Positions 17,579 through 36,068 of a DNA stretch of 64,000 bases are shown here, one piece after another (position 1 is the first letter of the stretch; every line of letters starts with the position of its first letter). Where the stretch lies: assembly GCA_963666275.2 (NCBI GenBank), contig CAXXOA010000001.1, positions 864,001 to 928,000 of the forward strand. The letters are read 5' to 3'. This DNA is from Oceanispirochaeta sp. GTDB lineage: Bacteria > Spirochaetota > Spirochaetia > DSM-2461. Below the pieces are notes generated by a model. The model saw only the letters and a program-made list of their open reading frames with translations. It searched no databases and was not told the DNA's origin. Both the position numbers and the translations under genes were made by a program.

Positions 17579-17664
17579 GCCTCTTTTTTATCTTCCTTTT
17601 GAAGCAATGGAGAATTTTACTCTGTAATATCTCTTAGAAAATGTTAAAATATAAGGGAGATATT

Positions 17665-18114
17665 ATGGGAGAACCTCAAGTGGACCAGAACCAATTAGAT
17701 CAAATTGGAGATTTTGTAAAAAGTCATCTTGGACAGTGGATACAGGAACAGAATATTTCTCTTTTTCCAGTAAGAGATAAGTCCCTTGATAAGGAACTTC
17801 TGGAAAGAATGATCCGGGTGGAAGAAGGTTTGAAAAATCAGATGGAACTGACCCGTCAGGGATTTGAAAATATGGAGAAACGTTTTATTGAACGTTTTGA
17901 AGCTGTTGATAAAAGGTTCGAGGCCGTGGATAAACGCTTCGAGGCCGTGGATAAGCACTTTGAGGCCGTGGATAAGCACTTTGAGGCCGTGGATAAAAGG
18001 TTTGAAGATATGCAGCACTATATGGACAAGCGTTTTAATGTTCAAACATGGATTATCAGTGCAGGTTTCGCCATGATGACAATACTGATGTCTCTCTATC
18101 GGTTCTTTGGTTAA
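17665..18114 (+). CDS. Coiled-coil heptad-repeat protein with C-terminal TM helix
   Basis: GGAG RBS; (K)RFEAVD repeats; hydrophobic C-terminus. An alternative start exists at 17641. Confidence 0.75.
   Translation: MGEPQVDQNQLDQIGDFVKSHLGQWIQEQNISLFPVRDKSLDKELLERMIRVEEGLKNQMELTRQGFENMEKRFIERFEAVDKRFEAVDKRFEAVDKHFEAVDKHFEAVDKRFEDMQHYMDKRFNVQTWIISAGFAMMTILMSLYRFFG
17893..18006 (+). repeat. 21-bp in-frame tandem repeat, 5 copies plus a partial copy
   Basis: Unit like cactttgaggccgtggataag, encoding (R/H)FEAVDK. Confidence 0.9.
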
Positions 18115-18201: not shown

Positions 18202-19082
18202 ATGAAACAGAAAATTTCTGCCTCCCTTAACGAGGCATTCGGCTTCGACTCCTTCCGGAAGGGCCAGGAGGATGTGATAACAAAAATATTAAGCGGAGAC
18301 TCGGCGGCGGCTATTTTTCCCACCGGGGCGGGGAAGTCCCTCTGTTATCAGCTGCCGGCTCTGCTGCTGCCGGGAATGACTCTTGTTGTCTCTCCTCTCC
18401 TGTCCCTGATGAAGGACCAGCTGGATTTTCTGAGTTCCAGGAACATACCCGCCGCCAGGCTGGATTCGTCTCTGAGCAGTGAAGAGTACAGTTCCGTCAT
18501 AGCCAGGGCCTCCCGGGGGGATCTCAGAATCCTGATGATATCGGTGGAGCGTTTCCGTAATGAGAGGTTCAGGAATTATCTGAAAAATATGAGGATTTCG
18601 CTCCTCGCTGTTGATGAAGCTCACTGTATTTCCGAATGGGGGCACAACTTCCGCCCCGAGTATCTGCGTCTTCCCGAATACAGAGCGGAGTTCGCTATAG
18701 AGCAGGTACTCCTGCTGACTGCAACGGCAACACGGTCTGTGGCAGATGATATGTGCCGGAAATTCAGGGTAAAACCGGAAAACCTTGTGTCCACAGGTTT
18801 CTACAGGGCCAATCTTCATCTGGCAGTGATTCCCCTGGAAAGGTCGGAAAAAAGAGATAGACTTCTTCAGGATCTTTCAGAACAACCTGATGCGCCTTCG
18901 ATTGTCTATGTGACCCTTCAGAAAACAGCGGAAAATCTGGCCTTCTGGCTGAAAGAACAGGGTGTGGATGCTTCTTCCTATCACAGCGGTATGAAAAATG
19001 ATGAGAGGACGGCCATACAGAACCGTTTTATGCAGGGAGAACTGAACTGCGTTGTTGCCACCATCGCCTTCGGGATGGGGAT
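18202..19082 (+). pseudogene. recQ: RecQ-family helicase, 5' half, interrupted by the island
   Basis: PTGAGKSLCYQLP, VDEAHCISEWGHNFRPEY, LTATA and VVATIAFGMGI; the native continuation is at 35567. Confidence 0.9.
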
Positions 19083-19428
19083 AAACAAGCCCAATGTTAC
19101 GCATTGTAGTGCACTACGATCTGCCCAAAAATGTGGAAAATTATTACCAACAGATTGGCCGGGCCGGATGTAACGGACTGGATTTCCACTGCCTGCGGCT
19201 CTTCAATAACGGCGATAACTGCGGCAGCTGATCTCCTATCAGGAAGAATACGGGCTGCTGGATAAAGAAGCTCTGGAACGGGCCATGAATCTGGATGAGG
19301 AATTACGGAATAGGATCGCAAGACTCATCGAAATCCTGGGAGAAGGCCGTTTGAAGCAGATTCAGCAGGAACTGGGCGACCAGGTGAATATGAATCAGCT
19401 GAAGATGATGGTTCTTTGGAACACATAA
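19083..19428 (+). pseudogene. Degenerate 3' remnant of a second, different recQ
   Basis: After a frameshift it reads [23 protein letters not shown], then in another frame a C-terminal HTH-like tail LIEILGEGRLKQIQQELGDQVNMNQLKMMVLWNT*. Confidence 0.75.
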
Positions 19429-19530
19429 TTCCTCAGAATAGGTAGGGATTAACGACAGGCTTAAGACAACACTCGACATCATTCTGTAAATATAGTAAAA
19501 TAAAAGACCGATTTTTTATGGAGGCTGATA

Positions 19531-20268
19531 ATCAGCAAAGAGCAAAGAACCTTCCAATCAGGGGATCCCCGAAAAAACCGTTTACTATCCGTTTTGCCGG
19601 AAGCTGATTATAACCGGATTGCCCCTCACCTGGAATTGATAACCTTCTCTTTGGGAGACGTTCTCTACGAATCGGGCAGCCAATTCAATTATGTCTATTT
19701 TCCCACCACTGCCATTATCTCGCTGCTATCGTTGATGGAGAACGGTTCTTCTGCCGAAATATCCATTGTCGGGTTTGAAGGAATTGTCGGCATTGCCCTT
19801 TTTATGGGCGGAGAAACCATGGCTAATCGAGCTGTTGTGCAGAGCGCCGGGATGGCCTTCCGACTGAATGGTCGACTCCTGAAGCAGGAATTCAACCGCG
19901 CCGGACCCTTTCAGCATCTGCTGCTTCGCTATACCATGGCCTTTATCGCCCAGATGGCACAGACTGCCGTTTGTAATCGCCACCACTCGATAGACCAGCA
20001 ACTCTGCCGCTGGCTGCTGCTCAGTCTTGATCGTCTACCTTCGAACGAACTGAGCATGACCCAGGAACTCATAGCAAACATGCTTGGAGTGCGCCGTGAA
20101 GGTGTCACTGAAGCCGCAGGGAAACTACAGAACGCCGGTCTGATTGATTACCATAGGGGACGTATTACCGTATTGGACAGACCTGGGCTTGAAGCCCGGG
20201 TTTGTGAATGCTATGAAGTGGTTAGGAATGAGTTTGCCCGTTTACTTCCTGACTCTATTGCGGAATAA
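19531..20268 (+). CDS. Crp/Fnr-family transcriptional regulator (start uncertain: ATC/ATA near 19528-31, or TTG at 19594)
   Basis: cNMP-binding-like domain and HTH MTQELIANMLGVRREGVTEAAGKL. The family-typical N-terminus DPRKNRLLSVLP lies upstream of the TTG. Confidence 0.9.
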   Translation: MSKEQRTFQSGDPRKNRLLSVLPEADYNRIAPHLELITFSLGDVLYESGSQFNYVYFPTTAIISLLSLMENGSSAEISIVGFEGIVGIALFMGGETMANRAVVQSAGMAFRLNGRLLKQEFNRAGPFQHLLLRYTMAFIAQMAQTAVCNRHHSIDQQLCRWLLLSLDRLPSNELSMTQELIANMLGVRREGVTEAAGKLQNAGLIDYHRGRITVLDRPGLEARVCECYEVVRNEFARLLPDSIAE

Positions 20269-20449
20269 TCCTTCTCATCAAATTTTCCTTTAGTATATCG
20301 AAGGCTGCAGGCATGGTGAGACCGAAATCCGCCAAGCGGACATGAACCCGTCCGTCCACCGCCCAGACTCGTTCAAGTTCTTGCAAGGGAGTCAAAGCAA
20401 TTCCCCGTCACATTAACATCATTCAAATATATTCCTGCAAAGTTCATCG

Positions 20450-20495
20450 GTCTGTTCGCTTTCGAACAGACTGGAGCCAAAAAAAAGAATACCTT
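20450..20495 (+). promoter_or_regulatory. Palindromic operator 1 plus -10 box (class II Crp-like promoter)
   Basis: GTCTGTTCG-CTTT-CGAACAGAC (20450-71), then 18 bp, then TACCTT. Confidence 0.75.
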
Positions 20496-20528
20496 TAGAA
20501 GTATCAGTTAACAAAAAAGGAGATTGAT

Positions 20529-20795
20529 ATGGAAATCAATGAAGTAAGTAAAACGGCAAAAAGTAGTTTCGGGTCCTTCTTATCGAACAAACCCCTCTGG
20601 GCATTCTGGATCGCCTATACCCTTCTGTGCGCAATGCTATTCGGTATTTTTTATGGAGTTATCTATCTTATGGCACAGTTATGGTGGGTTCCTGTAATAG
20701 CCATCATTGTCATCGGGATGATTTGGGGAACTCTGGCATATACCCCGGAAAAAATTTTACCTGAAAAGAACGAAACGATGACGAATAATGTTTAA
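20529..20795 (+). CDS. Small two-TM membrane protein
   Basis: AGGAG RBS; 88 aa with two hydrophobic helices. Confidence 0.7.
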   Translation: MEINEVSKTAKSSFGSFLSNKPLWAFWIAYTLLCAMLFGIFYGVIYLMAQLWWVPVIAIIVIGMIWGTLAYTPEKILPEKNETMTNNV

Positions 20796-20849
20796 GAAGT
20801 CTTTTTGCAGCGAGTCCTTCGAAATATTCCAGGAGCAAAGGATTGATTT

Positions 20850-23399
20850 ATGAATGGAAAACACAATTTTGATGAAGTTCGCAAAATTGCTTATCCCACA
20901 ATTTCCCATGAACTGCTGGAGATAATATGTACAGGTAAAGAAGCAACGAATGAACAGAAAAAAGAAATTGCGGCTATTTCCCATGACTTGGGCAAAAATT
21001 ACTATCCCGAAATTCTGTTTCTGTTAACCTTCAATGAAATAGATAATCCGCAATTGGCCGAAAAGATCTGCCGTAAAATAGCCGTGCATAAAAAGAGCCT
21101 GGAAGAAAAAATCGGAAGACCTATTCTCCTGGAACTTGCGGCTAGAGACTATATTCAATGTAACCACCATGCAGACTCTTCCCTTATGAGAAATCAGGGG
21201 AAAATAATTACCCAAATAGCCAGACAGGCCATAAGAGACAATAATACCAACTGTTTTACTGCAGTACAGCTCCAAATCGATTTACAAAAAGAAATTGATC
21301 GATCTTATCGATATGGATCAACTTTTTCCATTATTATGATCGATTTAGACAATTTTAAAAGAATAAATGATTCCTTTGGCCACCAAAAGGGAGATCAGGT
21401 ATTACAATTTTTTGCTTCTCTCATAGAGGAGCATCTTCGGAAACCGGACAATCTCTATCGTTTCGGGGGAGACGAATTCCTCATTCTTCTTCCACAAACA
21501 AATATCAAAGGGACAGGTCAAATAGCCGATAAGCTGATTAAGCTTTTAAATACCACCACATGCGAAACCATTGATCAGACCATATCGATCAGTATGGGAA
21601 TCTCATCTTTTGAAAATAATCATGGTCACAGCCGCGAAGAAATAATAAAGAATGCAGACCAGGCTCTTTTCAAGGCAAAAAGTGAGGGGAAAAACCAAAT
21701 TGCTCTCTGGATAAATGGAAAATGTGAAATATTGGATTCTGGAAAAGATGCCTCACCCCAAAAACCGGCAGAAAGGAATATTAAAATCTCCTGCCATAAG
21801 ATTATACCTGGATGTGCTATCGGCCGTATATTTATTTTTGATGACAATTTCACCAGCCGAGTCAGGCAATACGATATAAAAGAGAACGAAAAAAAAGAGG
21901 AGCTGGAAAGAATAAAGAGGGCCATTAGCAGTGTTGCCGATGATCTATCAAAAATGGAGAGTAATGTAAATGAAGAATTAAATAAGGATCATGGGGCCAT
22001 TTTTCTTGTCCATAAAATGATTCTTCAGGATATTTCCATCATAAATGACATAGAAACGGAATTAGGCGACAGGTTACTGAATGGAGAGATAATCGTTAGA
22101 GATATTTTTCGGAGACTGGAAAAAAGGTTTCTCCTTTTTGAAGATGAGCAACGCCGGGAAAAGGCAAAAGATATAAGGGATATTGCCGGTAGACTAGTTA
22201 GAAAGCTTCAAGGGAAGGACCATAATATCCTTTCATCACTTCCGAAAAACACCATTCTCGTATCTCAAAGACTTCTCCCTTCTGATACGGTATTTATTGA
22301 TAAAAAACATGTAAAGGCGATCATCACTGGTGAAGGCAGCCGTGGTTCACATTCTGCTATACTGGCCCGTGCATTGGGCATTCCCTATGTAACCATCGAT
22401 AGGAAGATTGATATACTGCCCAATAAATCTCATGTGATTGTAGACAGTGATGGCAGAACCATATTCATTAACCCCGATGCGATTCTTTCAGATAAGTACA
22501 AAGAGCGGATAAAAGAGGAATCTAAAGAAAATCAGGAGCAGGATATTTCCTGGGAACCCATCGAATTCGGTGGAAGAAAGATATCGATATTAGCCAATGT
22601 TTCCTCTGAAGAGGAAGCCCTTGATGCCCTGTCATCCCATGCGGAGGGTGTGGGTCTATTACGGGTGGAAACCATATATTTATCCAGTCAGATTATGCCT
22701 GATGAGGATTTTCTTCTGTCCCGTTTCATGGAGATTCTAACTCCTCTCAAAGGAAAAGAGATAACCATCAGACTGCTGGATATAGGATCGGATAAAGTTC
22801 CTTCCTATCTGGATCTGGGGAATGAAATTAATCCGGCTCTGGGGCTCAGGGGAATCCGGCTTCTCCTGAAACATAAAAAACTTCTCAAGACTCAGCTATC
22901 CGCCTGCATCAGACTGAACAGAGAGATCCCTGTGAAAATTTTGCTACCCATGGTTTCACTCCCCTCGGAAGTACGGACCGTACGTCACTTAATGAAGGAA
23001 ATCGAGGGAGGGGGAAATATTCAAATAGGGGCGATGATAGAAACGCCAGCATCTTTGTTTCAATTGGATGAGATTATTGAAGTATCAGACTTTATCAGCG
23101 TGGGAACAAATGATCTGTTTCAGTACACCATGACTGCAGACAGGGAAAACAATGAAGTGGCAGAGTATTTTGACAAGGGCTTCCAGATCCTGGAAAATAC
23201 GATAGAGGAAATATTCAGGAAGTCCAGAGAAGCGGGTAAAGACTGTACCGTCTGCGGAGAAATAGCGGGAGACAGCGACCATATTTATGCCATGCTGAAA
23301 AAGGGTCTTACCCAGTTCAGTGTATTACCCAACCTTATTAAGAGGGTCAGGCGGGAAATCTTCGATTACGCTGAGAAAAGCAAGGAGACTACTTTGTAG
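20850..23399 (+). CDS. GGDEF domain-PTS Enzyme I (PtsI/PtsP-like) fusion
   Basis: RKPD..RFGGDEF followed by EI motifs GSHSAILARALGIP, NPALGLRGIR, MIETP, GTNDLFQY and VCGE. Confidence 0.9.
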   Translation: MNGKHNFDEVRKIAYPTISHELLEIICTGKEATNEQKKEIAAISHDLGKNYYPEILFLLTFNEIDNPQLAEKICRKIAVHKKSLEEKIGRPILLELAARDYIQCNHHADSSLMRNQGKIITQIARQAIRDNNTNCFTAVQLQIDLQKEIDRSYRYGSTFSIIMIDLDNFKRINDSFGHQKGDQVLQFFASLIEEHLRKPDNLYRFGGDEFLILLPQTNIKGTGQIADKLIKLLNTTTCETIDQTISISMGISSFENNHGHSREEIIKNADQALFKAKSEGKNQIALWINGKCEILDSGKDASPQKPAERNIKISCHKIIPGCAIGRIFIFDDNFTSRVRQYDIKENEKKEELERIKRAISSVADDLSKMESNVNEELNKDHGAIFLVHKMILQDISIINDIETELGDRLLNGEIIVRDIFRRLEKRFLLFEDEQRREKAKDIRDIAGRLVRKLQGKDHNILSSLPKNTILVSQRLLPSDTVFIDKKHVKAIITGEGSRGSHSAILARALGIPYVTIDRKIDILPNKSHVIVDSDGRTIFINPDAILSDKYKERIKEESKENQEQDISWEPIEFGGRKISILANVSSEEEALDALSSHAEGVGLLRVETIYLSSQIMPDEDFLLSRFMEILTPLKGKEITIRLLDIGSDKVPSYLDLGNEINPALGLRGIRLLLKHKKLLKTQLSACIRLNREIPVKILLPMVSLPSEVRTVRHLMKEIEGGGNIQIGAMIETPASLFQLDEIIEVSDFISVGTNDLFQYTMTADRENNEVAEYFDKGFQILENTIEEIFRKSREAGKDCTVCGEIAGDSDHIYAMLKKGLTQFSVLPNLIKRVRREIFDYAEKSKETTL

Positions 23400-24241
23400 T
23401 TTTATTCAACTCATTCCATAAATGGCTGCAATAGTAAATGGACATATGATCCTCAACGTCTCTATACGTACCAGTTTATTCAGACCAACAAAATAATGCT
23501 TCCATTCTGTAACGGAACGCCCGACATATCTTTTAAATATACTCATTTTAGACCAAAAGCCGGTATGGTTTTTCCGTCTTCTCATTTTGTTTAAAGTAGA
23601 AAAGGTTCTATTAATTTGCTTCAGGATAGTTTTCCCCATTATTTTCCTTTGACCGGCGAAATCAGGTTCTTCTTTATCCATAACGATGTGTCCCTCTTCT
23701 GATATATACACCAATGTTCCTAAATGGCTGAAATTAAAATCGATTTTAGGTAAATCAGGTGGAACAAGAGGAACTGGGTCATCATGATTCACAATTCTCC
23801 AACTTGTTTTAGCGGCTGAAAGAGCAATGAGTTCCTGGTCACCAAAGCGGGGAGCCCCAAAGGTATACAGACCAAAACTGGAGTCATGTTTGGTAAAGGC
23901 TAAACCAGCAAGGGCTCCGCCAAGACTATGCCCTGTAAACCATAAAAATCTCTTGGGGTTCTCTTCTATAAGCTGGTCCAGAAAGATCTTTACTCCCGTT
24001 GGATTTTCCCAAACACTATCTAAAGCCTTTGCAAATCCTTGGTGAACCTTACCGCCCTGTTCAAGATGACAATAGGCCAGGAAAGAACATTCAGAAAACC
24101 ACCATGCATTAACTGGTGAATAGTTTGTTTTTTGATTTGAAGAGGAAATTTTTCTCCATTTTCGAAATAAACATAATTCATATCAGGAGGTAATTCCGGA
24201 TTTTCAGGAACATCTTTATAACGGATTTTTGGCAATGTCAT
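23389..24241 (-). pseudogene. Class 3 lipase pseudogene
   Basis: KVHQGF, GHSLGG, YTFGAPR, VNHDDPVPLVP and DHMSIYY are spread over shifted frames (shifts near 24135 and 23465). Confidence 0.8.
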
Positions 24242-24395
24242 TTTAGTCAAACTTTTCTCCTGTAGAGTTTTACATCCCTTGGGCAAGAACATCTCAACTT
24301 CAGAATGCCCTGTTTGCTTTATCGCATTTCTCCTATAACTCTGACCAAAACTATTTGGATTGTTCCTATGGTCCCACCTTGTTTTTCATAAAGAC

Positions 24396-25142
24396 CTACC
24401 TGGATTTACCCTGATTTGCCACAGCCGCTTCTGCTTTGGCAATTTCTTCGGAGTTTCCGATGTAGTAATGCCTGATTGGTTTGAGATTGTTGTCCAGTTC
24501 GTATACCAGCGGAACACCGGTCGGAATGTTGAGCTCGACGACTTCCTCTTCAGAAAGCTTGTCCAGGTATTTGACCAGGGCCCGCAAACTGTTGCCATGA
24601 GCGACAATGACAACTCGTTTGCCCGACTTGACCACCGGGGCGATTTTTTGGTCCCAATAGGGCCACACACGGCCGAGGGTTAGTTTGAGCGATTCGGTCG
24701 CCGGTAGTTCGACGGGCGTCAGCCTATCATAACGGCGGTCAAATCGGGGATGTCTTTCATCATTCTCTCCCAGTCCAGGAGGTGTAATGCTAAAGCTGCG
24801 GCGCCAGATTAGGACCTGTTCATCGCCAAACCTGGCGGCTGTATCGGCTTTATTCAGCCCCTGGAGGGAACCGTAGTGGCGTTCATTTAATTCCCAGGCC
24901 CGGATCACGGGAATCCATTCCAGGTTGAGCTCAGACATCACCGACCATAAGGTTTTAATAGCGCGCTTCAGTACGGAAGTAAAGGCTGTGTCAAAAGTGT
25001 ATCCTCCACAGCGCAATACGTCTCCCGCCTTTTGGGCTTCCACGAGGCCCTGAGCGCTTAAGTCCACATCTGTCCAGCCGGTAAAGCGGTTTTCCAGGTT
25101 CCAGGTGCTTTGTCCATGACGAATCAATACGAGTTTATGCAT
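24396..25142 (-). CDS. gpmA: 2,3-bisphosphoglycerate-dependent phosphoglycerate mutase
   Basis: [37 protein letters not shown] and LNIPTGVP; 248 aa. Confidence 0.95.
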
Positions 25143-25155
25143 TTTAAGTTCTCTA

Positions 25156-25515
25156 CTAGTCTTCACGGGTCTGAAGCCCAAAGATTCGACAACCTTTTTT
25201 CATTCGTCCATACATGTTTCTTTTCTTCATCCGCGATGAGAAAAAAAAATGTATTTGTTCAGAATTTTCTAACGCCTTTGATTTCCCTGTATAAAAGCTG
25301 ATGCTCATTTTCTCAATATCCAGGTATTTTCTGTAAAGATCATCCTGAGAGATATCGATATTGAATATATTCTTATCCTTTTTCAAGTCAACAAAACACG
25401 TGATATCTGTTTTTTTTAATATAGTTTCAGGAACAGTTTCTACAAAACAATTAACCAGCCCTGCTTCTCCTGCCAATACACTGGATAGCTCTTTATTCCC
25501 TTGTACATTAGTCAC
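25156..25515 (-). CDS. Hypothetical protein (possibly a gene remnant)
   Basis: GTG start after AGGAGG; no family recognised. Confidence 0.45.
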
Positions 25516-25578
25516 GGTTACCTCCTAAATCATTTAATAATTAATCAATCCTATACAATCCGCTATCTGGATTAACTC

Positions 25579-25649
25579 AGTATATGGTCTTTCCACTGGA
25601 TAAGTCTGTGCGTTATCGAACAGACAGGAACAGCCATGAGGATTATCTT
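25579..25649. promoter_or_regulatory. Palindromic operator 2 between divergent operons
   Basis: GTCTGTGCG-TTAT-CGAACAGAC (25604-25). TATCTT lies 18 bp away on +; TATACT lies 19 bp away on -. Confidence 0.75.
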
Positions 25650-25689
25650 GAATACAGAAACAGTTATTGAATAAGAAACGGGAGCGGTT

Positions 25690-28479
25690 ATGTATATTTT
25701 GTTATTTTTAATAATATTTATTTTTGAAGGCTTGCTGATCATCGGCGGTTTCAGGAAAAAAAGAAAAATCTTAAAAATTTTAGGCACTGTACTTCTTACC
25801 ATCACTTGTATATTTTTGTGGTTCATGGGGTTTTGGGCCGATAAATTATGGTTTCAATCACTGGGGTTTATTGACAGATTCTGGACTGAATTTACAGTAA
25901 AACTAGGCTTTGGAATAGTTTCGTTCCTTATGGGCGGCATATTTATGTCCCTATTACTCATTCGTGTAAAAAAGCTCGGGACAGAAATAAAGACCTTTAT
26001 CACGGTCGGTACAGCGCTTATATCAGGATCAATTGGTACAGGTTTATGGGATGAGGCTCTTCTGTTCTTTAACAGAGTTCCTACAGGAACTATTGATCCG
26101 GTATTTGGCCTTGATGTTTCATTCTATATTTTTAGTCTTCCGTTTATTGCAGGCGTACATAAACTGTTAATGAACCTTTCTTTCATTTCCACAATAGTTG
26201 GATTATCGATCCTCGTTATAAGAACCAGAATTACTCTGACAAGTGGAATTATTCAACAAGAGCCTATTGATGATACAGAAAAGGAAACTTCCGGTCCTTT
26301 TTTAGTCGGATCAGCACTCTTGATTCTGTTTTCTGCTTTAGGATTGATAATTCGGCGTTTTCAGCTGTTATACAGCTCTGGAGGTACCGTAAACGGTCCC
26401 GGTTGGACTGAAGTTAATATTAGATTTCCGGCCATGATGGTCGCAGCACTAATAGTTGTTCTTGGGATGTTTTTTATTATCATACCAGGTTTAAGAAAAG
26501 TTAGTGCTTCTCCCTTGAAAAAGTTTAAAAAGTTAAATGAATCATTAAAATCTGTGGGTGTCGTTTTAATGCTGACCACTGTCCTTTGTATTCTGATTAT
26601 CGGAATTATTCCGGGAGTCATTCAGGCCCTGATTGTAGCACCCAACGAGATAACTTATGAACAGCCGTATATTGAAAGAAATATAGAATTCACAAGACGT
26701 GCCTTTAAGCTGAGCCATGTTCAGGAGAAAGAATATCCAATGGACTCAGTAGAATTCGACCGCAGCATTATTGAAGCGAATTCCGCGATAATCAACAATA
26801 CAAGGTTATGGGACTGGCATGCATTGAGTTCAGTGTATCAACAATTTCAGGAAATAAGACTGTATTATAAGTTCGGCGATATTGATATGGATCGCTATGA
26901 GATAAATGGTGAAAAAAGAGCCGTAATGGTTTCCGCCAGAGAAATGGAGTTGTCCAATTTAACGGCCCAGAGTCAGAACTTTGTCAATGAACGCTTTAAA
27001 TACACACATGGTTACGGTATAGCTATGAATACCGTAAATGAATTTACTGCCTCCGGGCTACCCCACCTTCTTATAAAGGACATTCCACCGGTAAGTGAAA
27101 CTTCAGGTCTCGAGGTTACCAGGCCAGAGATTTATTATGGAGAAAGAACGAATTCCTATGTTATTGCCAACAGCAGCGAAAAGGAGTTTGATTTTCCCCA
27201 GGGCGACAAGAATAGCTATGTTAACTACGCAGGCAAAGGCGGAGTCGAGATCAGTAACTTCTTTAGAAAATTCATTTACGGCTTTAAATATAGCAGCACA
27301 AAACTTCTCTTCTCAAATTATCCTCAAAATGACAGCAGGATACTTATGAACAGAAATATAATGAAACGTGTTCAACTTGCCGCTCCATTTCTTAAATTCG
27401 ACAGCGATCCCTATATTGTTTTAATCAATGGTGAGCTCCTATGGTTTATAGATGCCTATACCACCTCAACCAATTATCCTTACAGTGAGCACTTTTCAGG
27501 AACCCTTGACGGTGGAACTATAAGCACACAGGGCCTTTCAAGAGGCATCAACTATGTGAGGAATTCCGTTAAGGCTGTAGTGAATCCATACGATGGGAAA
27601 ATGGATTTCTACATCTATGATGAAGAAGATCCTGTAATAGACGTATGGAACAAAATATACCCAGGTTTGTTTAAACCCAAAGCAAGCATGCCCGATGAAC
27701 TAAAAGAGCATGTAAGATACCCTGCAGATTTCTTACTGATACAGGGTGAAATTTATGCAAAATATCACATGACTGTTCCGGAGGTCTTCTATAACCAGGA
27801 AGATATCTGGGTCCGTGCGACTGAAAAATATTACAGTGAAGTACAGCCTGTAGAGCCCTATTATATTATGTGGGAACGTCAGGGTGAAGATAAGCCTGAA
27901 TTTATTATTATGCTTCCCTACACACCTAAAAACAAGCAGGTTTTGATAGGTTGGATTGCCGGTATGAGCGATCCCGAGCACTACGGCGAGTTAATCGTCT
28001 ATAAGTTTCCAAAAGATAAGAGAGTTTTAGGCCCTCAGCAGGTTGAAACGAAAATAGATCAGGACAGTTTTCTGTCGGGACAGCTATCCCTTTGGGATCA
28101 GAGGGGGTCGAATGTGATCAGAGGGAATATCCTTGCTCTACCGCTTGGAGGAACATTGCTTTATGTTGAGCCCATTTATCTACAGTCGGAGACTGCGGCT
28201 TATCCTGAATTGAGGCTGGTAGTACTCATGCACAATGACAAAATATCCTATGCCGAAACACTTGAGAAAGCCCTCACCGGTCTATATAAAGATTCTGTAC
28301 CTATGGTTCAATATGTAAATACCGGAAATGATAATACCGGAGGCGAGACACAAACCCTGTTAAAGCAGGCCGATGAAGCATTCAGAAACTACCTGGAGGC
28401 AACCGGTGAAGGGAATTTGAGAAAAGCAGGTGAAGAGCTCCAACGATTAAAAGATCTTTTTGAGAATATGCCGGAATAA
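25690..28479 (+). CDS. UPF0182 family membrane protein
   Basis: DKLWFQSLGF, DPVFGLDVSFYIF, RLWD, FQEIRLYYKF, YTHGYG and NYVRNSVKAVV motifs; 929 aa. Confidence 0.93.
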   Translation: MYILLFLIIFIFEGLLIIGGFRKKRKILKILGTVLLTITCIFLWFMGFWADKLWFQSLGFIDRFWTEFTVKLGFGIVSFLMGGIFMSLLLIRVKKLGTEIKTFITVGTALISGSIGTGLWDEALLFFNRVPTGTIDPVFGLDVSFYIFSLPFIAGVHKLLMNLSFISTIVGLSILVIRTRITLTSGIIQQEPIDDTEKETSGPFLVGSALLILFSALGLIIRRFQLLYSSGGTVNGPGWTEVNIRFPAMMVAALIVVLGMFFIIIPGLRKVSASPLKKFKKLNESLKSVGVVLMLTTVLCILIIGIIPGVIQALIVAPNEITYEQPYIERNIEFTRRAFKLSHVQEKEYPMDSVEFDRSIIEANSAIINNTRLWDWHALSSVYQQFQEIRLYYKFGDIDMDRYEINGEKRAVMVSAREMELSNLTAQSQNFVNERFKYTHGYGIAMNTVNEFTASGLPHLLIKDIPPVSETSGLEVTRPEIYYGERTNSYVIANSSEKEFDFPQGDKNSYVNYAGKGGVEISNFFRKFIYGFKYSSTKLLFSNYPQNDSRILMNRNIMKRVQLAAPFLKFDSDPYIVLINGELLWFIDAYTTSTNYPYSEHFSGTLDGGTISTQGLSRGINYVRNSVKAVVNPYDGKMDFYIYDEEDPVIDVWNKIYPGLFKPKASMPDELKEHVRYPADFLLIQGEIYAKYHMTVPEVFYNQEDIWVRATEKYYSEVQPVEPYYIMWERQGEDKPEFIIMLPYTPKNKQVLIGWIAGMSDPEHYGELIVYKFPKDKRVLGPQQVETKIDQDSFLSGQLSLWDQRGSNVIRGNILALPLGGTLLYVEPIYLQSETAAYPELRLVVLMHNDKISYAETLEKALTGLYKDSVPMVQYVNTGNDNTGGETQTLLKQADEAFRNYLEATGEGNLRKAGEELQRLKDLFENMPE

Positions 28480-28488
28480 AAGGGGAGA

Positions 28489-30441
28489 ATGATCATGTAT
28501 AGGAAAAAGAGCAATAAAGATTCCCTGGAATACGCAGAGAATATTCTCAATACTATTCGTGAACCCCTCATTGTTCTGGATCAGAATTTGAGGGTGATTT
28601 CAGCAAACAGTTCTTTTTTTAAAGTTTTCAGGGAAGAGCCTGATGAAACCCTGGGGCAGCTGATTTATAACCTGGGCAATCATCAATGGGATATTCCTCA
28701 ACTGCGGGAGTTACTGGAGAGGATTCTTCCTTTAGAGCAATCCTTTGATAATTATAAGGTTGAACATCATTTCAATACACTCGGCCGTCGTATTATGTCA
28801 TTAAATGCACGGAAGATTGAACGTAAAAAGGGAAAAGAGGAAATCATTCTTCTGGCGATTGAGGATATCACAGAGAAGGAAATGGCCCAACTCGCCCTTG
28901 AAGACTCAGAAGAACGATTTAGGCGATTATTTGAAACGGCGAAAGATGGTCTTTTTCTTTTAGATAAGAAAAACGGTCAAATCGTTAATGCGAATCCGGC
29001 GATTTGCAAGTTGTTGGGTTATACACAAAAAAAAATCATCGGTAAGTCACTTCACGACTTTCATTTTTCTATGGTCCTTGATGATTTTTACATCCTGTTG
29101 GAACATTTAATTATTCATGGCTTTATTTCCTATAATGACATTTTTGTACAAAATAAGCTAGGGACGCCAGTTAGCATCGATCTTCAAATCATTGACAGGT
29201 CGAGGTTTATTCAATGTAATTTCCGCGATATCACTGCTCGCAAGATTGCCGATAAAGAAAAGGCAATCCTTACAGATCAACTCAATCAGGCGCAGCGCAT
29301 GAAAACCGTTGGGGTTTTGGCGGGTGGGATTGCCCATGATTTTAACAATATTCTGTCCATTATTATTGGCAATGCAGAACTAGCCCTCAATGATATTTCT
29401 CCTGAAAACCCGGTCAAAGAAAATATGGAAACAGTACTGGCCGCTTCCATACGGGCAAAAGACCTGGTCAGCCAGATACTCACCTTCAGTCGGAAGGATA
29501 AAGCAATGCTTATTCCACTGTGGCCCCAGCCTCTCATTAATGAAACCTTAAAGCTCTTACGTTCGGCAACACCTGCCACCATTTCCATCATTCAGAATAT
29601 ATCAAAGGATTGCGGAATGATTATGACAGATATAACCCAATTCCATCAGATAATAATGAACCTTTTTGGGAATGCCGTCCAATCTATGAATGAGAAAGGT
29701 GAAGTGATAGTCAGTTTACAAGAAGTGAATTTGAATAATAAGGATTTTAGTCATTTTTCAAAAATGTCGCCCCTAACAATAAAAGCCCCGGGAGCTTTTG
29801 CCCGATTCTCCGTGGCTGATTCTGGAAATGGAATCGGACCGCACATAATGAAACATATCTTTGAACCTTTTTTCACCACCAAGAAGGTGGGAGAAGGAAC
29901 AGGCATGGGTTTGTCAGTGGTTCATGGCATTATTCAAAGCCAGGAAGGATTCATTACCGTTGAAAGCGAAGAAGATAAAGGAAGTACCTTCAGTGTGTTC
30001 CTCCCGATTACACACAACGAAGAAACGCATCATGTTGAAGTAAAAAAAACTATTCTTACCGGTACGGAACGAATACTTCTTGTAGATGATGAAGAACTTC
30101 TTCTGAATATGACGGAACAATTACTGGAACAAATGGGATATACAGTGACTAGTGAAGAAAGGAGTATAAAGGCTCTTAAAATTTTCAAGACAAACCCGGA
30201 AAACTTTGATCTTGTAATCACTGACCAGTCCATGCCAGAGATGTCCGGGGGAGAACTAGCATCCCAAATATTGAAAGTGAGACCGGAGATGCCCATTATT
30301 CTGTGTAGCGGATACAGCTCAAAAGTATCTGAAGAAAACTATAGAGACACTGGAATCGCTATGTATCTGAATAAACCCTATAACAGAAAAGCATTATCCG
30401 GAACGGTCAGGAAAGTATTGGACGGAAAAGGTTCAAAATAA
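28489..30441 (+). CDS. Cytoplasmic PAS-PAS hybrid histidine kinase
   Basis: Two PAS domains, GGIAHDFNN, HATPase and a C-terminal REC domain (LVDDE, TDQSMP). Confidence 0.92.
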   Translation: MIMYRKKSNKDSLEYAENILNTIREPLIVLDQNLRVISANSSFFKVFREEPDETLGQLIYNLGNHQWDIPQLRELLERILPLEQSFDNYKVEHHFNTLGRRIMSLNARKIERKKGKEEIILLAIEDITEKEMAQLALEDSEERFRRLFETAKDGLFLLDKKNGQIVNANPAICKLLGYTQKKIIGKSLHDFHFSMVLDDFYILLEHLIIHGFISYNDIFVQNKLGTPVSIDLQIIDRSRFIQCNFRDITARKIADKEKAILTDQLNQAQRMKTVGVLAGGIAHDFNNILSIIIGNAELALNDISPENPVKENMETVLAASIRAKDLVSQILTFSRKDKAMLIPLWPQPLINETLKLLRSATPATISIIQNISKDCGMIMTDITQFHQIIMNLFGNAVQSMNEKGEVIVSLQEVNLNNKDFSHFSKMSPLTIKAPGAFARFSVADSGNGIGPHIMKHIFEPFFTTKKVGEGTGMGLSVVHGIIQSQEGFITVESEEDKGSTFSVFLPITHNEETHHVEVKKTILTGTERILLVDDEELLLNMTEQLLEQMGYTVTSEERSIKALKIFKTNPENFDLVITDQSMPEMSGGELASQILKVRPEMPIILCSGYSSKVSEENYRDTGIAMYLNKPYNRKALSGTVRKVLDGKGSK

Positions 30442-30573
30442 TATTTCTTTCCTTCCAATCTGCCCTCCATTGGTATGAGGCTTAGAGCCCATTCTTCGCT
30501 CTCTATACTTCATTAACTGTATAAAGCCTTGATATCCGGTGAATATTTCCAAAGGTTTGCGATGGTCATCTTC

Positions 30574-32088
30574 CTAAGGGACGGACGCTGATATCATCGC
30601 GTTCAAACATTCATGTACATTTACAGTGGCAAAACTGGTTGAATAATCGCTCATTGCATAGGGGATAATCAATTCTCCATTATGTATGATGCTGCCGCAG
30701 GAATAGATAACATTGGGAACATATCCCTCCCTTTCTGTTTCGTTGGGTGACAACAAGGGGCTCGTCAAGCGGCCAATCACCTTGGATGGGTCCTTAAGAT
30801 CCAGTAAAAAGGCACCCAGGCAGTATTTCCGCATAGCTCCCACACCATGACTCAATACCAGCCAACCCGCTTCAGTCTCTATGGGGGATCCACAGGTTCC
30901 GATTTTAAACAGCTCCCAGTCCATAAAGGGCTTTAGCAGTATTTTGGGCGTTTGCCAGAAATGGATATTATCTGAAAACATCAGTGATATATTCTCATCA
31001 TCCTGACGGGACAGCATGGCGAATTGATGGTTTATTTTTTTGGGGAACAGGGCCATTCCTTTATTTTGAACGGCTGGACCGTTCAGTGTTATGAATTTAA
31101 ATTGGAGAAAATCCTTGGTCTCCAGTAATTGAGGAATGGTTAATTTTCCATCATAGGCCGTATAGGTTGCATAATAGGTACAGCTGAGGTCTTCATCTTG
31201 AAACCGGACAAAACGGGCATCTTCGATCCCATTGTGTTCTGTAGGACCTCTGGGAAAGAGAATCCTCTGCGAAAAGGGGCTTTCGGAGTCAAAACATACT
31301 TCATAATTGGATTTGGCCAGTAACAGAATACCATGGAGACTTCTATCGGCTATGGTATCCATGGGGTTCATTTTCTTTCTTTCTGTTTTAAGCAGAATAC
31401 AAAGTTCATCCATGGTGAAATATTCGGGAAGAGAATCCATCACTTTTCGGCAGAAATGATTGTGCAGTCCCGCTTCCCCTAGTTTTCTGAAGAAGAGATC
31501 TTTTTTATACTTGAAATGAGGTAAATACTCGGGTTCGCAAATATAAGGGCCATGAGGTATGAGTGTTATTTCTTTTTTTGCGTTTATCCGGCCTTCCCGA
31601 AAGGTGATTGAAGATATATGCCCCTCTCCTATGGCTCTTAAGCTGAGAATGAAGCGGATTGAATCCTCAGGTAAATCGGTCTGATCCGGATGAATGACCA
31701 GGGATGGATTCAGTAAGGCTGCTGACTCCGGTGAATATTCATGGCAAAAATAAGCTCCTATAAGAGTTTTACGCTTATCAGAGATGTGAAGATCATCATG
31801 TATATAGTCCATTATTTCTTTATAGCGATTATCGAATGACTTCTTTATATCCAGATGTCTGTCTTTGAATTCCTTAATCACCTCGGTCAGTTTTGTGGAA
31901 ACCTCTGACTCCGAAAGAGACTGAATCCTAGAGATAATATGACGTGTAATGGATTTATTTCCAGCGGAAAAGGCTCTGATCAGCACATGTGATCTTTCCG
32001 GGATAAGTGTGGGGCCAATCCTTCTGGCATTCACTACAGGTCTATTCTCCACATCATTTAGATTCCTTGGTAAGGCCGTTTTTTTCAT
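30574..32088 (-). CDS. GH130-like glycosidase/phosphorylase
   Basis: LSLRAIGEGHISSI, NGIEDARFV, NKGMALFP and EREGYVPNVIYSCG. Confidence 0.85.
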   Translation of the reverse strand: MKKTALPRNLNDVENRPVVNARRIGPTLIPERSHVLIRAFSAGNKSITRHIISRIQSLSESEVSTKLTEVIKEFKDRHLDIKKSFDNRYKEIMDYIHDDLHISDKRKTLIGAYFCHEYSPESAALLNPSLVIHPDQTDLPEDSIRFILSLRAIGEGHISSITFREGRINAKKEITLIPHGPYICEPEYLPHFKYKKDLFFRKLGEAGLHNHFCRKVMDSLPEYFTMDELCILLKTERKKMNPMDTIADRSLHGILLLAKSNYEVCFDSESPFSQRILFPRGPTEHNGIEDARFVRFQDEDLSCTYYATYTAYDGKLTIPQLLETKDFLQFKFITLNGPAVQNKGMALFPKKINHQFAMLSRQDDENISLMFSDNIHFWQTPKILLKPFMDWELFKIGTCGSPIETEAGWLVLSHGVGAMRKYCLGAFLLDLKDPSKVIGRLTSPLLSPNETEREGYVPNVIYSCGSIIHNGELIIPYAMSDYSTSFATVNVHECLNAMISASVP

Positions 32089-32101
32089 ATTCCTGACTTC
32101 C

Positions 32102-34378
32102 CTAAGATTTCAGTTTAAAACTGATAAGTTTGCTTTTTAAAAGATACATTTCTTCCTGAGAGAGGAGAAACGCCAAGGTCGATTCAGCCCCCTGATTCTG
32201 GCTAAGTCTGTCTATGTGAAGCCCGTCTCTGCAGCCTCCGCTTTCAGGATCGTACATGGGCTGTTCCAGATCGTTCCTTCCTAAAAACCATTCAAAAACC
32301 ATCCGGGCTTCTTCTGCCCAATAAATTTCTCCGGTTGTATTGAAAGCCTCAATACATGCTGAAATCGTAGCCTGGGCTTCAATAGGTTGCTGGTCGAAAA
32401 GAGCTTTGTCCTTGCCCTTTGGATAGAATCCGTTTGATCCGATTGCATGAAAAACCCCATTATCGGATTTCTGTATGGACAGAAGCCAGGAAAGTGTTTC
32501 TATTCCTTTATCTACGGCCTCCTTATTATTCATCTCTCTTCCGCTGCTGATCAGTGCGTGAGATAATTTTGCATTGACATAAGTGACCCCGTCCTCAAAC
32601 CAGGGCCAGTCAGGGGATGCGGCATCATTCAGCCTCTGCATCAGCTTCTCCACCAGTTCAACCCTTATCAATTCCGCTCTGCGGTCTCCGCTGAATTGGT
32701 GCAGATATTCATTTATACCAATAAGGGTAAAGGCCCAGGCCCGGGGTGATGTAAAACTGGTAACCACGGGTAAAGCGATTTCAAATAGACTGGCCGCCAG
32801 GAGCTGAAAGCGCTTATGCCTTCTGTGGCCCATGGACATTCCCAATGCCCAAAGAGCCTGGCCGTGGCAGTCTTCTGAGCCTGGCTGGTCTATCCAATTT
32901 CTATTGAAGTTCATGAAATTGCGGAATCGTTTGTTCGCGTGATCAAAGGCATGATTCAGAAAGGCTGCATAGACCACTGCCAGCTGATTGCTTTTATAAG
33001 TGCAGCGGCCTGTCCGTTGCAGAAGCAGTGTATATAGAAAGGCCCTGGCGTTGTCATCGGTACAATAGCCATGTTCAAAATTGGGAACTGTAAAGGATGC
33101 ATGCTGAAATATCCCTGTGGAATCACTTAAATTATAAAGATGATCAAGATTTAAAAGAGGCAATAAAGTAGGAAACTTATCCAGAGAAATTATGACCGAA
33201 GGTTGCCTGTTTTTTGAAGGATAGATGGAACAGGCTTCATCAAAGGTTTTCATATATTGCCTGGCAACAGAACTCCACGTCATGGTCCGTCCCAGTATAA
33301 AGGCGTCTTTTCTCATTTTATGCCGTTGGGATGAATGGGATAATAATTCAATGGCTGCATCCGAAATGGCCTTATAATCACAAAATGGCACCAGTAGTCC
33401 TCTGCCCTCGGCCAATAATTCACTGGCATGCCAGTAGGGCGTGGAAATAACAGCATTACCTGTACCAAAGGCGTATGCCAGGGTTCCTGAGGTGATTTGC
33501 GCTTCTGTCAGATAGGGTGTTAGGTATATATCGCTGGAACCGATAAAGCGTAGCAATTCATCCAATTCCACAAAGCGATTGATAAAAACAACGTTTTTTT
33601 GAATCTCAAGGTTTTTTGCCAACAATTCCAAACTGAGTCGGTAAAGCTCTCCGTCCTTCTTTAATAAATGGGGATGTGTCTGCCCTACTACAATGAATAC
33701 CGTATTGGGAAATTTCTCAAGAATCTGTGGCATGGCCTGCAGGCCGTATTCGATCCCCTTGTTGGGAGAGAGCAGGCCAAAGGTAAGAATAACCTGTTTC
33801 CCCGCCACGCCGAACTCATCCTTGAAATAATTGGGATCGGCAAAGGGAATATCGGGAATTCCGTGGGGGATCAGACTAATCATATCCTCCGATGCACCAT
33901 AGACGTTTTTCAGTATTTCCTTTCCCTTTAAGGTCATAACAATGAGCCGGGAGGATAATTGAATGATTTCAAGCATGACTTTCATCTGGTCGGGATTGGG
34001 AGATTCAAGCAGAGTATGGAGAGTGGTGGCTATAGGCATCTTCAATATATGCATAAGAGCCAGAATATGGCTTCCCGCATCACCGCCATAAATACCGAAT
34101 TCATGCTCTATGCAGACCATATCGACATTGGCCATATTCAGGAAATCAGCTGCCCTGAGATAGGAATTCAAATCCTGTTCCATGATTTCAAACCTTACTT
34201 CTTCAGGATAATCATAACCATCAGGAATATCGTTCACAGGAACGACAAGACATTTTTTTTCTGGGAACTCCTGTGATAGGGATGTACATAAATCCTTTGT
34301 GAAAGTTGCTATTCCGCACTTTCTCGGTAGATAATTGCCGATAACGGCGATTTTTTTAATCTCGGTATTTTGCTGCAA
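32102..34378 (-). CDS. GT4 glycosyltransferase with C-terminal six-hairpin-like domain
   Basis: PRKCGIATFT, HEFGIYGG and SGTLAYA; C-terminal GYCTDDNARA and NQGAESTLA. Confidence 0.88.
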   Translation of the reverse strand: MQQNTEIKKIAVIGNYLPRKCGIATFTKDLCTSLSQEFPEKKCLVVPVNDIPDGYDYPEEVRFEIMEQDLNSYLRAADFLNMANVDMVCIEHEFGIYGGDAGSHILALMHILKMPIATTLHTLLESPNPDQMKVMLEIIQLSSRLIVMTLKGKEILKNVYGASEDMISLIPHGIPDIPFADPNYFKDEFGVAGKQVILTFGLLSPNKGIEYGLQAMPQILEKFPNTVFIVVGQTHPHLLKKDGELYRLSLELLAKNLEIQKNVVFINRFVELDELLRFIGSSDIYLTPYLTEAQITSGTLAYAFGTGNAVISTPYWHASELLAEGRGLLVPFCDYKAISDAAIELLSHSSQRHKMRKDAFILGRTMTWSSVARQYMKTFDEACSIYPSKNRQPSVIISLDKFPTLLPLLNLDHLYNLSDSTGIFQHASFTVPNFEHGYCTDDNARAFLYTLLLQRTGRCTYKSNQLAVVYAAFLNHAFDHANKRFRNFMNFNRNWIDQPGSEDCHGQALWALGMSMGHRRHKRFQLLAASLFEIALPVVTSFTSPRAWAFTLIGINEYLHQFSGDRRAELIRVELVEKLMQRLNDAASPDWPWFEDGVTYVNAKLSHALISSGREMNNKEAVDKGIETLSWLLSIQKSDNGVFHAIGSNGFYPKGKDKALFDQQPIEAQATISACIEAFNTTGEIYWAEEARMVFEWFLGRNDLEQPMYDPESGGCRDGLHIDRLSQNQGAESTLAFLLSQEEMYLLKSKLISFKLKS

Positions 34379-34548
34379 TGTTCACTCGATATGTGTCTGA
34401 GTTTCAGCAGAAACTCGCATAATATAAAGCAGGGCATATGAAAGGTTTAAGCATGTAGTTAATACTTACCTCTAAAATCAAGCGCAAGATAAGGATTATC
34501 TTTCTGTTTGAAGGATAATCATTTCTTGTCTTCTTAATGTAAATATAC

Positions 34549-34650
34549 TCATTTAATCCTTAATGAACAAATCTTTCCTCCTATCCCAATGACCTCAATA
34601 ACGTTTCCACATATTTCACATCTGTAAATCTGTTTTTTTTCAGTAGTCAT
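34549..34650 (-). pseudogene. Truncated desulfoferrodoxin/desulforedoxin-like N-terminal fragment
   Basis: GGAGG RBS; MTTEKKQIYRCEICGNVIEVIGIGGKICSLRIK* has the first CxxC but lacks the CC pair. Confidence 0.6.
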
Positions 34651-34701
34651 TTTAATCCTCCAGGATTTTTATCATTGATTCCAGCCTGATCGGGAGCGAA
34701 A

Positions 34702-35454
34702 TCAGGTTGTTACTTTCTCGACCCAGTAACCCACGCGATTGTAATGACCATGCAGTTTCCCCTCATAATCCCGTGAAAGCATCTTTTTCCCGGTGTATTC
34801 AGGCGACTCTTTAACGGTCTCACGGTTAAGATTAACAATAACCTTCATTTCATCCCAACTGACCCGTTCTATCCATTTTGGAGAAATCAGCACTTTCCTA
34901 CCGGGCAACCAATTTCGTGTATCCACTACCAGATAACGGATTTTCCAGGTCTCATCATGTAGAATGTAGTCTTCCACATGACCTATTTCTCCGTCCTTAG
35001 CCTGAATGTGATATCCCTGTACCGCGTAGTAACTGCGTAAATGTGGGTTCCAGGATTTTCCCGCCCTATTTTTTGACCCTATTTCTGGGTGAGGAACCAT
35101 GAAAGACTCATTACCCCAGGTGTATGATCCGTACCAATATACAGGCCATCCGTAGTACTCGTAGTAGGATTCTTCGAATTGCTGTGAGACCGGCTTATCG
35201 TTCTCCAACGAGGGACTGCCCTCAATTTGTTTCTTCGTCAAATCGACGGCTACCTGACGCTTGTCCTCATTCATGGACAGCAATGCATAGGGTGAGATTA
35301 ATACACGTCTTTCCTTCAGCCAGTTTCCGGTATCTACCACCAAATAACGGACGGCCCAGTGCCGGTCATCAAAATAGAACTCCTTAACCTTTCCTATTTC
35401 TCCATCTCGGCTTTGTAATGTGTAACCTGTCAAATCTTTTACAGTTGTCAACAT
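34702..35454 (-). CDS. Tandem PRC-barrel domain protein
   Basis: Two repeats of DGEIG.V..F..DD..W..RYLVVDT.NWL..R.VLISP; ATG at 35454 after GGAGG. Confidence 0.9.
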   Translation of the reverse strand: MLTTVKDLTGYTLQSRDGEIGKVKEFYFDDRHWAVRYLVVDTGNWLKERRVLISPYALLSMNEDKRQVAVDLTKKQIEGSPSLENDKPVSQQFEESYYEYYGWPVYWYGSYTWGNESFMVPHPEIGSKNRAGKSWNPHLRSYYAVQGYHIQAKDGEIGHVEDYILHDETWKIRYLVVDTRNWLPGRKVLISPKWIERVSWDEMKVIVNLNRETVKESPEYTGKKMLSRDYEGKLHGHYNRVGYWVEKVTT

Positions 35455-35482
35455 AAAGCGATACCTCCAATTAGTTAGTATT

Positions 35483-35528
35483 ACGATAATGAATATCAGA
35501 GGGTTCGTCTGTTCGATAGCGCACACTG
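35483..35528 (-). promoter_or_regulatory. Palindromic operator 3 plus -10 box
   Basis: On the minus strand: CAGTGTGCG-CTAT-CGAACAGAC (35528-35507), then 18 bp, then TATCGT. Confidence 0.75.
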
Positions 35529-35558
35529 AAGGATGTTTTACATAAGAAAATGTCCGGC

Positions 35559-36068
35559 ATGGGGATCGATAAAAAAAATATCCGCCGGGTCATACACTTT
35601 GATCTGCCGAAATCCATTGAAAACTACAGTCAGGAGATCGGCCGGGCCGGACGGGACGGGCAGAAGTCTCTCTGCCGGGTTTACAGTGATATAAGCAATC
35701 TTTCTGTGCTGGAAAATTTTGTCTATGGGGATACTCCCGACAGACAGGCCGTCCGGAGGATCCTTTCTAGGATCAGAGAGTGTGACAAACTATGGGAAGT
35801 CAAACTCTCCGAGTTAAGTCGGGATTCCAATATACGGACTCTGCCTCGGCTGGATGAAAAAGGAGTGGCCGGACTGCTTGAACAGTTCCTGCCCCTGTCC
35901 GGGCAGGAGAGAACCTCTGCCAATCTGGCTAAATTCCTCTGCGGCATCAATATGCCCTTTTTTACCTCTATCAGAGCAAAAACTCTGGGAGGTTTCGGGA
36001 GTCTTGAGAAATATCCCTTCGCACAGGTCCGGGATTTTCTGGAGGAGACTCCCTTCTGGAAGGAGTGA
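35559..36068 (+). pseudogene. recQ: RecQ-family helicase, displaced 3' half, probably with an internal deletion
   Basis: [34 protein letters not shown] (motifs V-VI). The sequence after SNIRTLP (~35846) seems short for the family. Confidence 0.85.

Follow-up and report, generated by a model that had tools for sequence, protein, structure and literature searches.

Serine integrases recombine attachment (att) sites in which a 2-bp core lies between arms spanning about 50 bp. The size of such sites is treated in PMC12286644, and the core dinucleotides of large serine recombinases (LSRs, proteins with Resolvase and Recombinase domains) in PMC10083194. LSR elements can split conserved coding genes, among them those for Mg-chelatase/comM and prolyl isomerase (Durrant et al. 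2022, PMC10083194), and the same study gives Helicase_C as an LSR target in 13 of 1069 clusters vs. 3 of 908 background clusters (false discovery rate 0.076). Some of these Helicase_C targets could be recQ, and RecQ goes unmentioned by name in its main text and in the eight supplement files searched. Here, we characterize a 16.5-kb island lying within a recQ helicase gene, at the GMGI codons of motif V, in a 64,000-nucleotide stretch of an Oceanispirochaeta genome (hereafter the window). We found recQ described as an att site nowhere in the literature searched, outside which Mageeney 2020, the TIGER database and preprint supplements may list the site, nor in the sections covered of PMC13626063, PMC12424338, the Integrase-On-Demand preprint and the hitcher-island preprint. 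The latter puts the share of att-bounded islands without recombinase traces at 6%.

We estimate at about 70% the probability that this island is an integrase-less relic of an LSR element which brought a recQ of its own and inserted at the AT of the recQ motif V Met codon. Since related spirochaetes carry serine-integrase elements at the same codon, the island most likely belongs, in decayed form, to a group of mobile elements which have recQ as their target and often come with a second copy of it. The genome holding the window (G000, window at C1:864001-928000) comprises 5.27 Mb in 3 contigs, is 97% complete and has a GC content of 47.8%. Compared genomes are labeled G###, proteins P####, extracted loci L###, contigs C### and Logan runs X1 to X4, while recQ proteins are grouped into a 638-amino-acid (aa) type (host), a 712-aa type (P0001) and a 515-aa type.

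The insertion is real. Junction coverage was determined from Logan contigs of four runs, three of which (X1, X2 and X3) are a single sample, possibly the source organism, so that their support is not independent. Each junction is crossed by single contigs with 0 mismatches, the left one in three of four runs (X1, X2, X3) and the right one in two (X1, X2); X3 contigs break at the right junction, where depth is 3-5, and X4 gives nothing. An intact 638-aa recQ, the empty allele that the original prediction had proposed to seek in relatives, is found in the congener G004 between the same upstream open reading frame (ORF) and Hsp20/DegP genes as in the window. By alignment to this gene (75% identity for the 5' half, 78% and 55% for the 3' pieces), both window halves are one gene of the 638-aa type. 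Junctions left unspanned, or halves matching different recQ genes in relatives, had been named beforehand as grounds for abandoning the insertion, and neither was observed. The island has a GC content of 42.0%, compared with 48.8% and 46.8% in its flanks.

The 12-bp direct repeat reported in the original prediction, CGG(G/C)ATGGGGAT, is present at 19071-19082 and 35555-35566 with 11 of 12 positions identical. This 12-mer occurs four times in the 5.27-Mb genome, twice away from the junctions, and is by itself a weak marker of the junction. Joining the two halves gives an in-frame recQ and the junction costs the host no bases, as had been claimed. Within the host 3' half, alignment places an in-frame deletion of ca. 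184 codons, zinc-binding domain included, at 35846/35847. Excision would not restore a full helicase because these codons are missing.

The left end of the island holds further recQ sequence, which the original prediction missed. Next to the left junction, on its island side, stands a frameshifted 3' piece of a recQ of another type, consisting of motifs V-VI and an HTH_40 end (Pfam E 3e-5). It aligns to residues 292-340 (69%) and 648-710 (84%) of the 712-aa protein P0001, and Logan contigs list no indel over 19072-19428. The last 51 residues ahead of the left junction are 73% identical to the G004 protein vs. 35% to P0001, the segment past it is P0001-like (78%), and the right-hand half is G004-like (82%). 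On these identities, the left junction joins two different recQ paralogs and is no plain attL. Since the left end of the island is a recQ of the other type, the repeat represents the conserved GMGI codons of two separate recQ genes; as judged from the alignments, it is not a target duplication. The helix-turn-helix piece of the remnant had no match in 300 other genomes of the class. No close ortholog of P0001 was found in 300 class genomes either (best full-length match 57%), and the remnant is therefore foreign. Its closest relative is not in G000, which carries three other recQ genes, and no donor context emerged for the foreign recQ, a metagenome scan giving 1 weak locus.

Breaks at the same Met codon were observed in recQ paralogs of eight other genomes from three families, affecting three recQ types (G003, G008, G009 with three junctions, G012, G224, G013, G071 and G046), among ca. 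400 genomes examined by searches of uneven sensitivity. Within the genus, 4 of 11 genomes are affected, G000 counted. The breaks in G071 and G046 were found by a pattern search with 3 matches among 401 genomes, and these two genomes provide the link to an enzyme. In G071, recQ is interrupted by a 26,941-bp element on one contig, the break falling on the AT of the Met codon and the element's ends forming an inverted repeat around AT so that a core with two arms is apparent. A gene for a 607-aa protein with Resolvase and Recombinase domains starts 45 bp inside attR (the right junction), with an HTH_17 gene beside it. In G046, a homologous LSR (37-38% identity over 217 aa, truncated where the contig ends) is located 63 bp inside attL, and phage genes (terminase-like ORFs, assigned by eye) precede the recQ 3' half. 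The original prediction had suggested looking for an integrase beside split recQ genes elsewhere; the codon proved to be broken in eight genomes and an LSR to accompany it in two, with none found beside the others. For the G071 protein, 37 homologs reached E <= 1e-20, among which two carry the names of spirochaete proteins, and a profile yielded 64 clusters (50% identity) at E <= 4e-99. Its match to the XisF family of NCBIfam is weak and far below cut-off, and annotated phages hold distant LSRs only (10 of 41 listed, at 23-31% identity).

The other six genomes display recQ-bearing arrangements. In G003 and G008, a 5' copy of the third recQ type cut at motif V is followed by a GGDEF-PtsI unit and then a whole recQ; the units are 86-100% alike, the recQ halves ca. 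72%. G009 has a complete second recQ after a 5' half, and another of its contigs (G009:C165) holds two tandem 3' halves behind an island with a cyclic oligonucleotide-based antiphage signaling system (CBASS) and type III restriction. G012 and G224 likewise have a 5' half and a whole recQ, their extra RecQ proteins being 97% identical across two families, and in G013 a whole recQ precedes a 7.8-kb unit, after which comes a 3' half 97% identical to its own. Of the best 120 short RecQ proteins, 4 have AFGMG as their very last residues; one of these is from G224 and one is marked partial. Scanning 185,579 species genomes for a codon other than F/Y/L before GMG gave 37 matches (33 intact variants, 2 internal deletions, 1 frameshift, 1 intron-like) and no insertion-split recQ; this says little about the family because the pattern needs a Gly codon absent from the attR junctions of G009, G013, G071 and G046. 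None of the recQ genes resembling the element-borne copy was split in 11 further regions, no recQ 3' half was present within the contig of a recQ-adjacent restriction island in G059, and scanned viral contigs showed neither a motif V junction nor a homolog of the G071 LSR.

Several separate observations on recQ were made along the way. On an IMG/VR contig (L226:1-3693), a serine recombinase gene in convergent orientation overlaps a whole recQ at the 3' end and not at motif V. In P0058, a RecQ truncated after AFGM is joined to a transposase-type domain (PF01610). Internal recQ deletions with their right end at the motif V GMG occur in a deltaproteobacterial metagenome-assembled genome and in Cupriavidus (L057, L068), and most treponemal recQ paralogs from the scan (L038-L074) carry Trp rather than Phe/Tyr before GMG. 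G003 has a second partial copy of its recQ-linked unit ca. 12 kb off, beside a short recQ 5' fragment (L088:290-1742 / L112:17625-20000), and in G009:C76 two short 515-aa-type recQ 3' fragments lie downstream of an intact copy (L110:6829-10322). In G000 itself, region C1:626717-664743 contains a 515-aa-type recQ 5' fragment 38 kb upstream of the intact copy, cut near codon 114-125 and not at motif V, and abutting sequence like the G003 arm; repeated 70-130 bp remnants, insertion sequence (IS) genes and a broken tyrosine recombinase are also present there.

Comparison of the junctions indicates that the att core is probably the 2-bp AT and not the 12-bp repeat, and the right junction is best read as an attR relic. 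Here, an att-like arm of 13 nt, the true marker of this junction, has its single exact copy in G000, and its inverse stands 11 nt after the core at the left junctions of G009, G012, G224 and G008; in G003, TTATGT is found at the corresponding place. The TTAT of the arm starts at -14 in the window and at +12 in these five genomes, at +13/-15 in G071 and G046, and at -15 in G013. The left-right offset is thus 2 nt in both groups, with a spacing one base longer in G071/G046. An 11-mer version of the arm has 6 copies in G000, giving a chance of ca. 2e-6 for one at any of four offsets, a figure that is indicative only, the motif having come from comparing these same junctions. A single-strand hairpin reading of the junctions was rejected, as folds were no better than shuffles in 7 of 7 cases (z -1.44 to +0.97), and Xer/dif-like and integron readings were discarded for lack of a consistent dif geometry. 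In G008, a segment 170 bp inside the left junction (L090:14918-14945) has arms on both sides of AT and resembles an intact attP or a tandem junction.

As originally stated, no integrase or transposase was found inside the island: 19 window proteins, 12 of them island ORFs, scanned negative, intergenic translations of the island showed no integrase by eye, and a serine-integrase profile had no match in the island. Site-specific entry at motif V and loss of the recombinase, as first proposed, are supported, while the suggested mobilization in trans is not, since no serine recombinase was found in the 97%-complete genome.

A number of results weigh against the island being an LSR relic. The same LSR search of G000 bears on this reading too, and no LSR was found in G009, G012, G224, G003 or the G013 chromosome; G008 has two, 2.5 Mb away and without a match to the G071 protein. 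These results therefore link no integrase with the window's subtype of arm, whose connection to the LSR clade is by geometry and not by a shared enzyme. This subtype (TTATGTAAAAC arm) has a spacing 1 nt shorter than, and a sequence different from, the G071/G046 arm, and only the right arm survives in the window, without a left one. The two G009:C165 arms are off the spacing, and AT is replaced as the core by CT in G008 and by TT at a single C165 junction. Within the G071 element there is a tyrosine recombinase as well, and the G012 and G224 assemblies have no displaced 3' half. Further, no excision joint (circle or empty site) was among the 15 of 19 Logan joints shown, a check made on contigs, which drop rare forms.

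The locus shares features with several described systems. Like the LSR elements of PMC10083194, the group has one conserved coding target site, a core dinucleotide and, in G071 and G046, a Resolvase and Recombinase protein beside the att site; unlike them, many of the recQ derivatives have a replacement recQ, be it whole or half, but lack an integrase, and the window has only attR. As in the tRNA/tmRNA islands of Islander (PMC4383910), a restored gene at one end is paired with a displaced 3' fragment at the other, with tandem fragments in G009, and in the window, too, the element brings a 3' replacement, now decayed, with the displaced fragment at the far end. The differences are a protein-coding target, a replacement of ca. 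0.9-1.3 kb or a whole paralog, and a serine instead of a tyrosine integrase in the relatives. SPbeta in spsM (PMC4191935) and gin in gerE (PMC5595907), whose excision restores the interrupted gene, are similarly serine recombinase elements in coding sequence with the halves in frame, whereas in the window the 3' half is internally deleted and the enzyme is gone, which makes gene restoration impossible. Since its left side is a fusion of host and foreign recQ, the window does not present attL and attR as host/element hybrids, and with ca. 184 codons missing, excision would not give a full-length gene. The island does not qualify as an intact LSR element; it works like LSR elements of coding genes, with a replacement like that of islands in tRNA genes.

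We propose the following history. An LSR would have joined attP (arm, ca. 13 nt, AT, ca. 11 nt, arm) to attB in recQ, and the element would have compensated for the broken gene with a recQ that it carried. This recQ may have been whole and placed on the inner side of attL, the arrangement of G009, G012 and G224; a deletion from one motif V stretch to the other could later have taken the left arm and left a chimeric helicase. Alternatively, the att site may have borne a 3' half from the outset, the arrangement of G013 and G009:C165. The LSR gene would then have been lost, fixing the Crp-regulated cargo, and both 3' halves decayed, the genome having three other recQ genes. A wider version of this proposal is tentative, namely that a spirochaete LSR clade recognizes the Met codon of motif V as attB, whichever the recQ paralog, and has seeded standing integrase-free cassettes with recQ wholes or halves, tandem arrays, shuffling of helicase halves between paralogs and delivery of defence or regulatory cargo.

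It is unlikely that the island never encoded an integrase and instead belongs to non-autonomous cassettes of one att arm and one recQ half, entering through an LSR in trans or by homologous recombination in recQ. Such cassettes would fit the 0 of 9 junction-adjacent genes recognised as a recombinase (G000, G003, G008, G009, G012, G013, G224), the tandem 3' halves of G009:C165, the 97% duplicate of its own 3' half in G013, and G003/G008 units 86-100% alike next to recQ halves only ca. 72% alike. However, no cognate LSR was found in these genomes, crossovers between recQ genes that trim a full element would yield the same structures, and the remnant, being from a different paralog, is too distant from the host gene for easy homologous entry.

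A one-off illegitimate capture assisted by homology, with a donor recQ paired at motif V, chance microhomology on the other side and a coincidental arm, is improbable and already largely refuted: the arm is unique in the genome and stands at a fixed distance in four others, and the same codon is broken in eight other genomes, with LSR elements in two. The strong conservation of motif V among paralogs, the two additional genomic copies of the 12-mer and the two internal recQ deletions ending at GMG (L057, L068) are what speak for it. Little probability is likewise left for a reading in which the arm subtype of the window belongs to another enzyme, a tyrosine recombinase or a transposase of the IS type, that came to use this codon by convergence. 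The arm spacing is indeed unlike that of G071/G046, and the G003 arm resembles ends at G000 C1:664343 and 646279, which adjoin what we take to be IS-like remnants. A tyrosine recombinase link was nevertheless rejected, as no recQ or arm motif was found beside any of the 30 loci covered out of 43 matched, and the 2-nt offset is the same as at LSR sites. There is no target duplication of the IS type, the repeat being accounted for by two recQ genes, and an end-to-end inverted pair, as in a composite transposon or IS, was absent among the best 25 (longest) of 425 repeats. PF00589 has 10 matches in G000 and 0 in the window, so no tyrosine integrase lies at an island end. One tyrosine recombinase of G000 (C1:1064057, 418 aa) is integron-integrase-like by eye. 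Misassembly between recQ paralogs, conceivable in a 3-contig assembly with several recQ genes whose covering runs are one sample, is dismissed by the mismatch-free single contigs over each junction and by the remnant having its closest relative outside G000.

Coordinates of the island and its cargo, numbered from the first base of the window.
Feature	Position	Strand	Remarks
Host recQ (638-aa type), 5' half	18202..19076	+	ends at AT of motif V Met codon; 75% to G004
Left 12-bp repeat copy	19071..19082	+	in-frame fusion point, host 5' half / foreign recQ 3' half
Decayed 3' half of foreign 712-aa-type recQ	19072..19428	+	two frame changes, ca. 307-codon internal deletion, HTH_40 end
Crp-family transcription regulator	19594..20268	+	Pfam cNMP_binding and HTH_Crp_2
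Palindrome TGTNCG-N4-CGNACA, copy 1	20453..20468	.	probable site of island Crp regulator
Small membrane protein	20529..20795	+	
GGDEF-PtsI (PTS enzyme I) fusion	20850..23399	+	Pfam, NCBIfam
Lipase-like gene	23406..24292	-	GHSLGG motif; two short ORFs in window
2,3-BPG-dependent phosphoglycerate mutase	24396..25181	-	NCBIfam above cut-off
Palindrome, copy 2	25607..25622	.	
UPF0182 membrane protein	25690..28479	+	Pfam E 3e-251
PAS hybrid histidine kinase / response regulator	28489..30441	+	
GH130-family glycosidase/phosphorylase	30574..32088	-	
GT4-family glycosyltransferase	32102..34378	-	
PRC-barrel protein	34702..35454	-	occupies place of G071 integrase gene
Palindrome, copy 3	35510..35525	.	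upstream of PRC gene
Att-like arm, TTATGTAAAACAT read outward	35533..35545	-	13 nt from AT core
Putative 2-bp crossover core (AT of Met codon), attR	35559..35560	+	junction table; G071 inverted repeat around AT
Displaced host recQ 3' half	35559..36068	+	82% to G004 over motifs V-VI

The cargo between the two recQ remnants consists of foreign regulatory and metabolic genes and includes a Crp-family regulator and a palindrome that is probably its site. Three of the four genomic copies of the 16-bp palindrome lie inside the island, and it recurs near homologous cargo genes in G015, G044, G005 and G190. We infer a self-contained Crp regulon with the palindromes as its predicted sites; a literature search on this module gave nothing. 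The att-like arm is near only 1 of 9 palindrome contexts and is therefore not part of the Crp promoter. A GGDEF-PtsI homolog (66%) is part of the recQ-linked units of G003 and G008. In G044 (L079:8000-19661), a few kb separate a tyrosine integrase from a Crp / PtsI / GH130 / GT4 module with the same palindrome, and elements of other types may therefore carry this cargo too. Relative to the window, one extra base after 24127 was found in 3 of 3 covering runs, which gives a lipase-like gene of ca. 295 aa; its split in the window is a probable one-base assembly error. A short frame at 34550-34650 (-) with a CEICG motif resembles a remnant of a desulforedoxin-type metal-binding protein. Upstream of recQ, the ORF at 17641-18114 contains a 21-bp tandem repeat, is shorter in G004 and has several other partial copies in the genome.

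In conclusion, our analysis adds recQ motif V as an integration hotspot with three paralog types, three spirochaete families and a candidate enzyme. Island finders that require an integrase (TIGER/Islander, PMC12424338) would miss the window and most of its relatives. The copy in the window is a dead relic. An attP/attB pair can be rebuilt from the relatives, and an integrase reading a conserved helicase motif could serve as a broad-host insertion tool. For the spirochaetes themselves, elements that break a repair helicase yet carry a spare offer a route to chimeric helicases, as well as a route to fixing cargo such as CBASS, type III and ISP restriction systems and a Crp regulon after the integrase has been lost.

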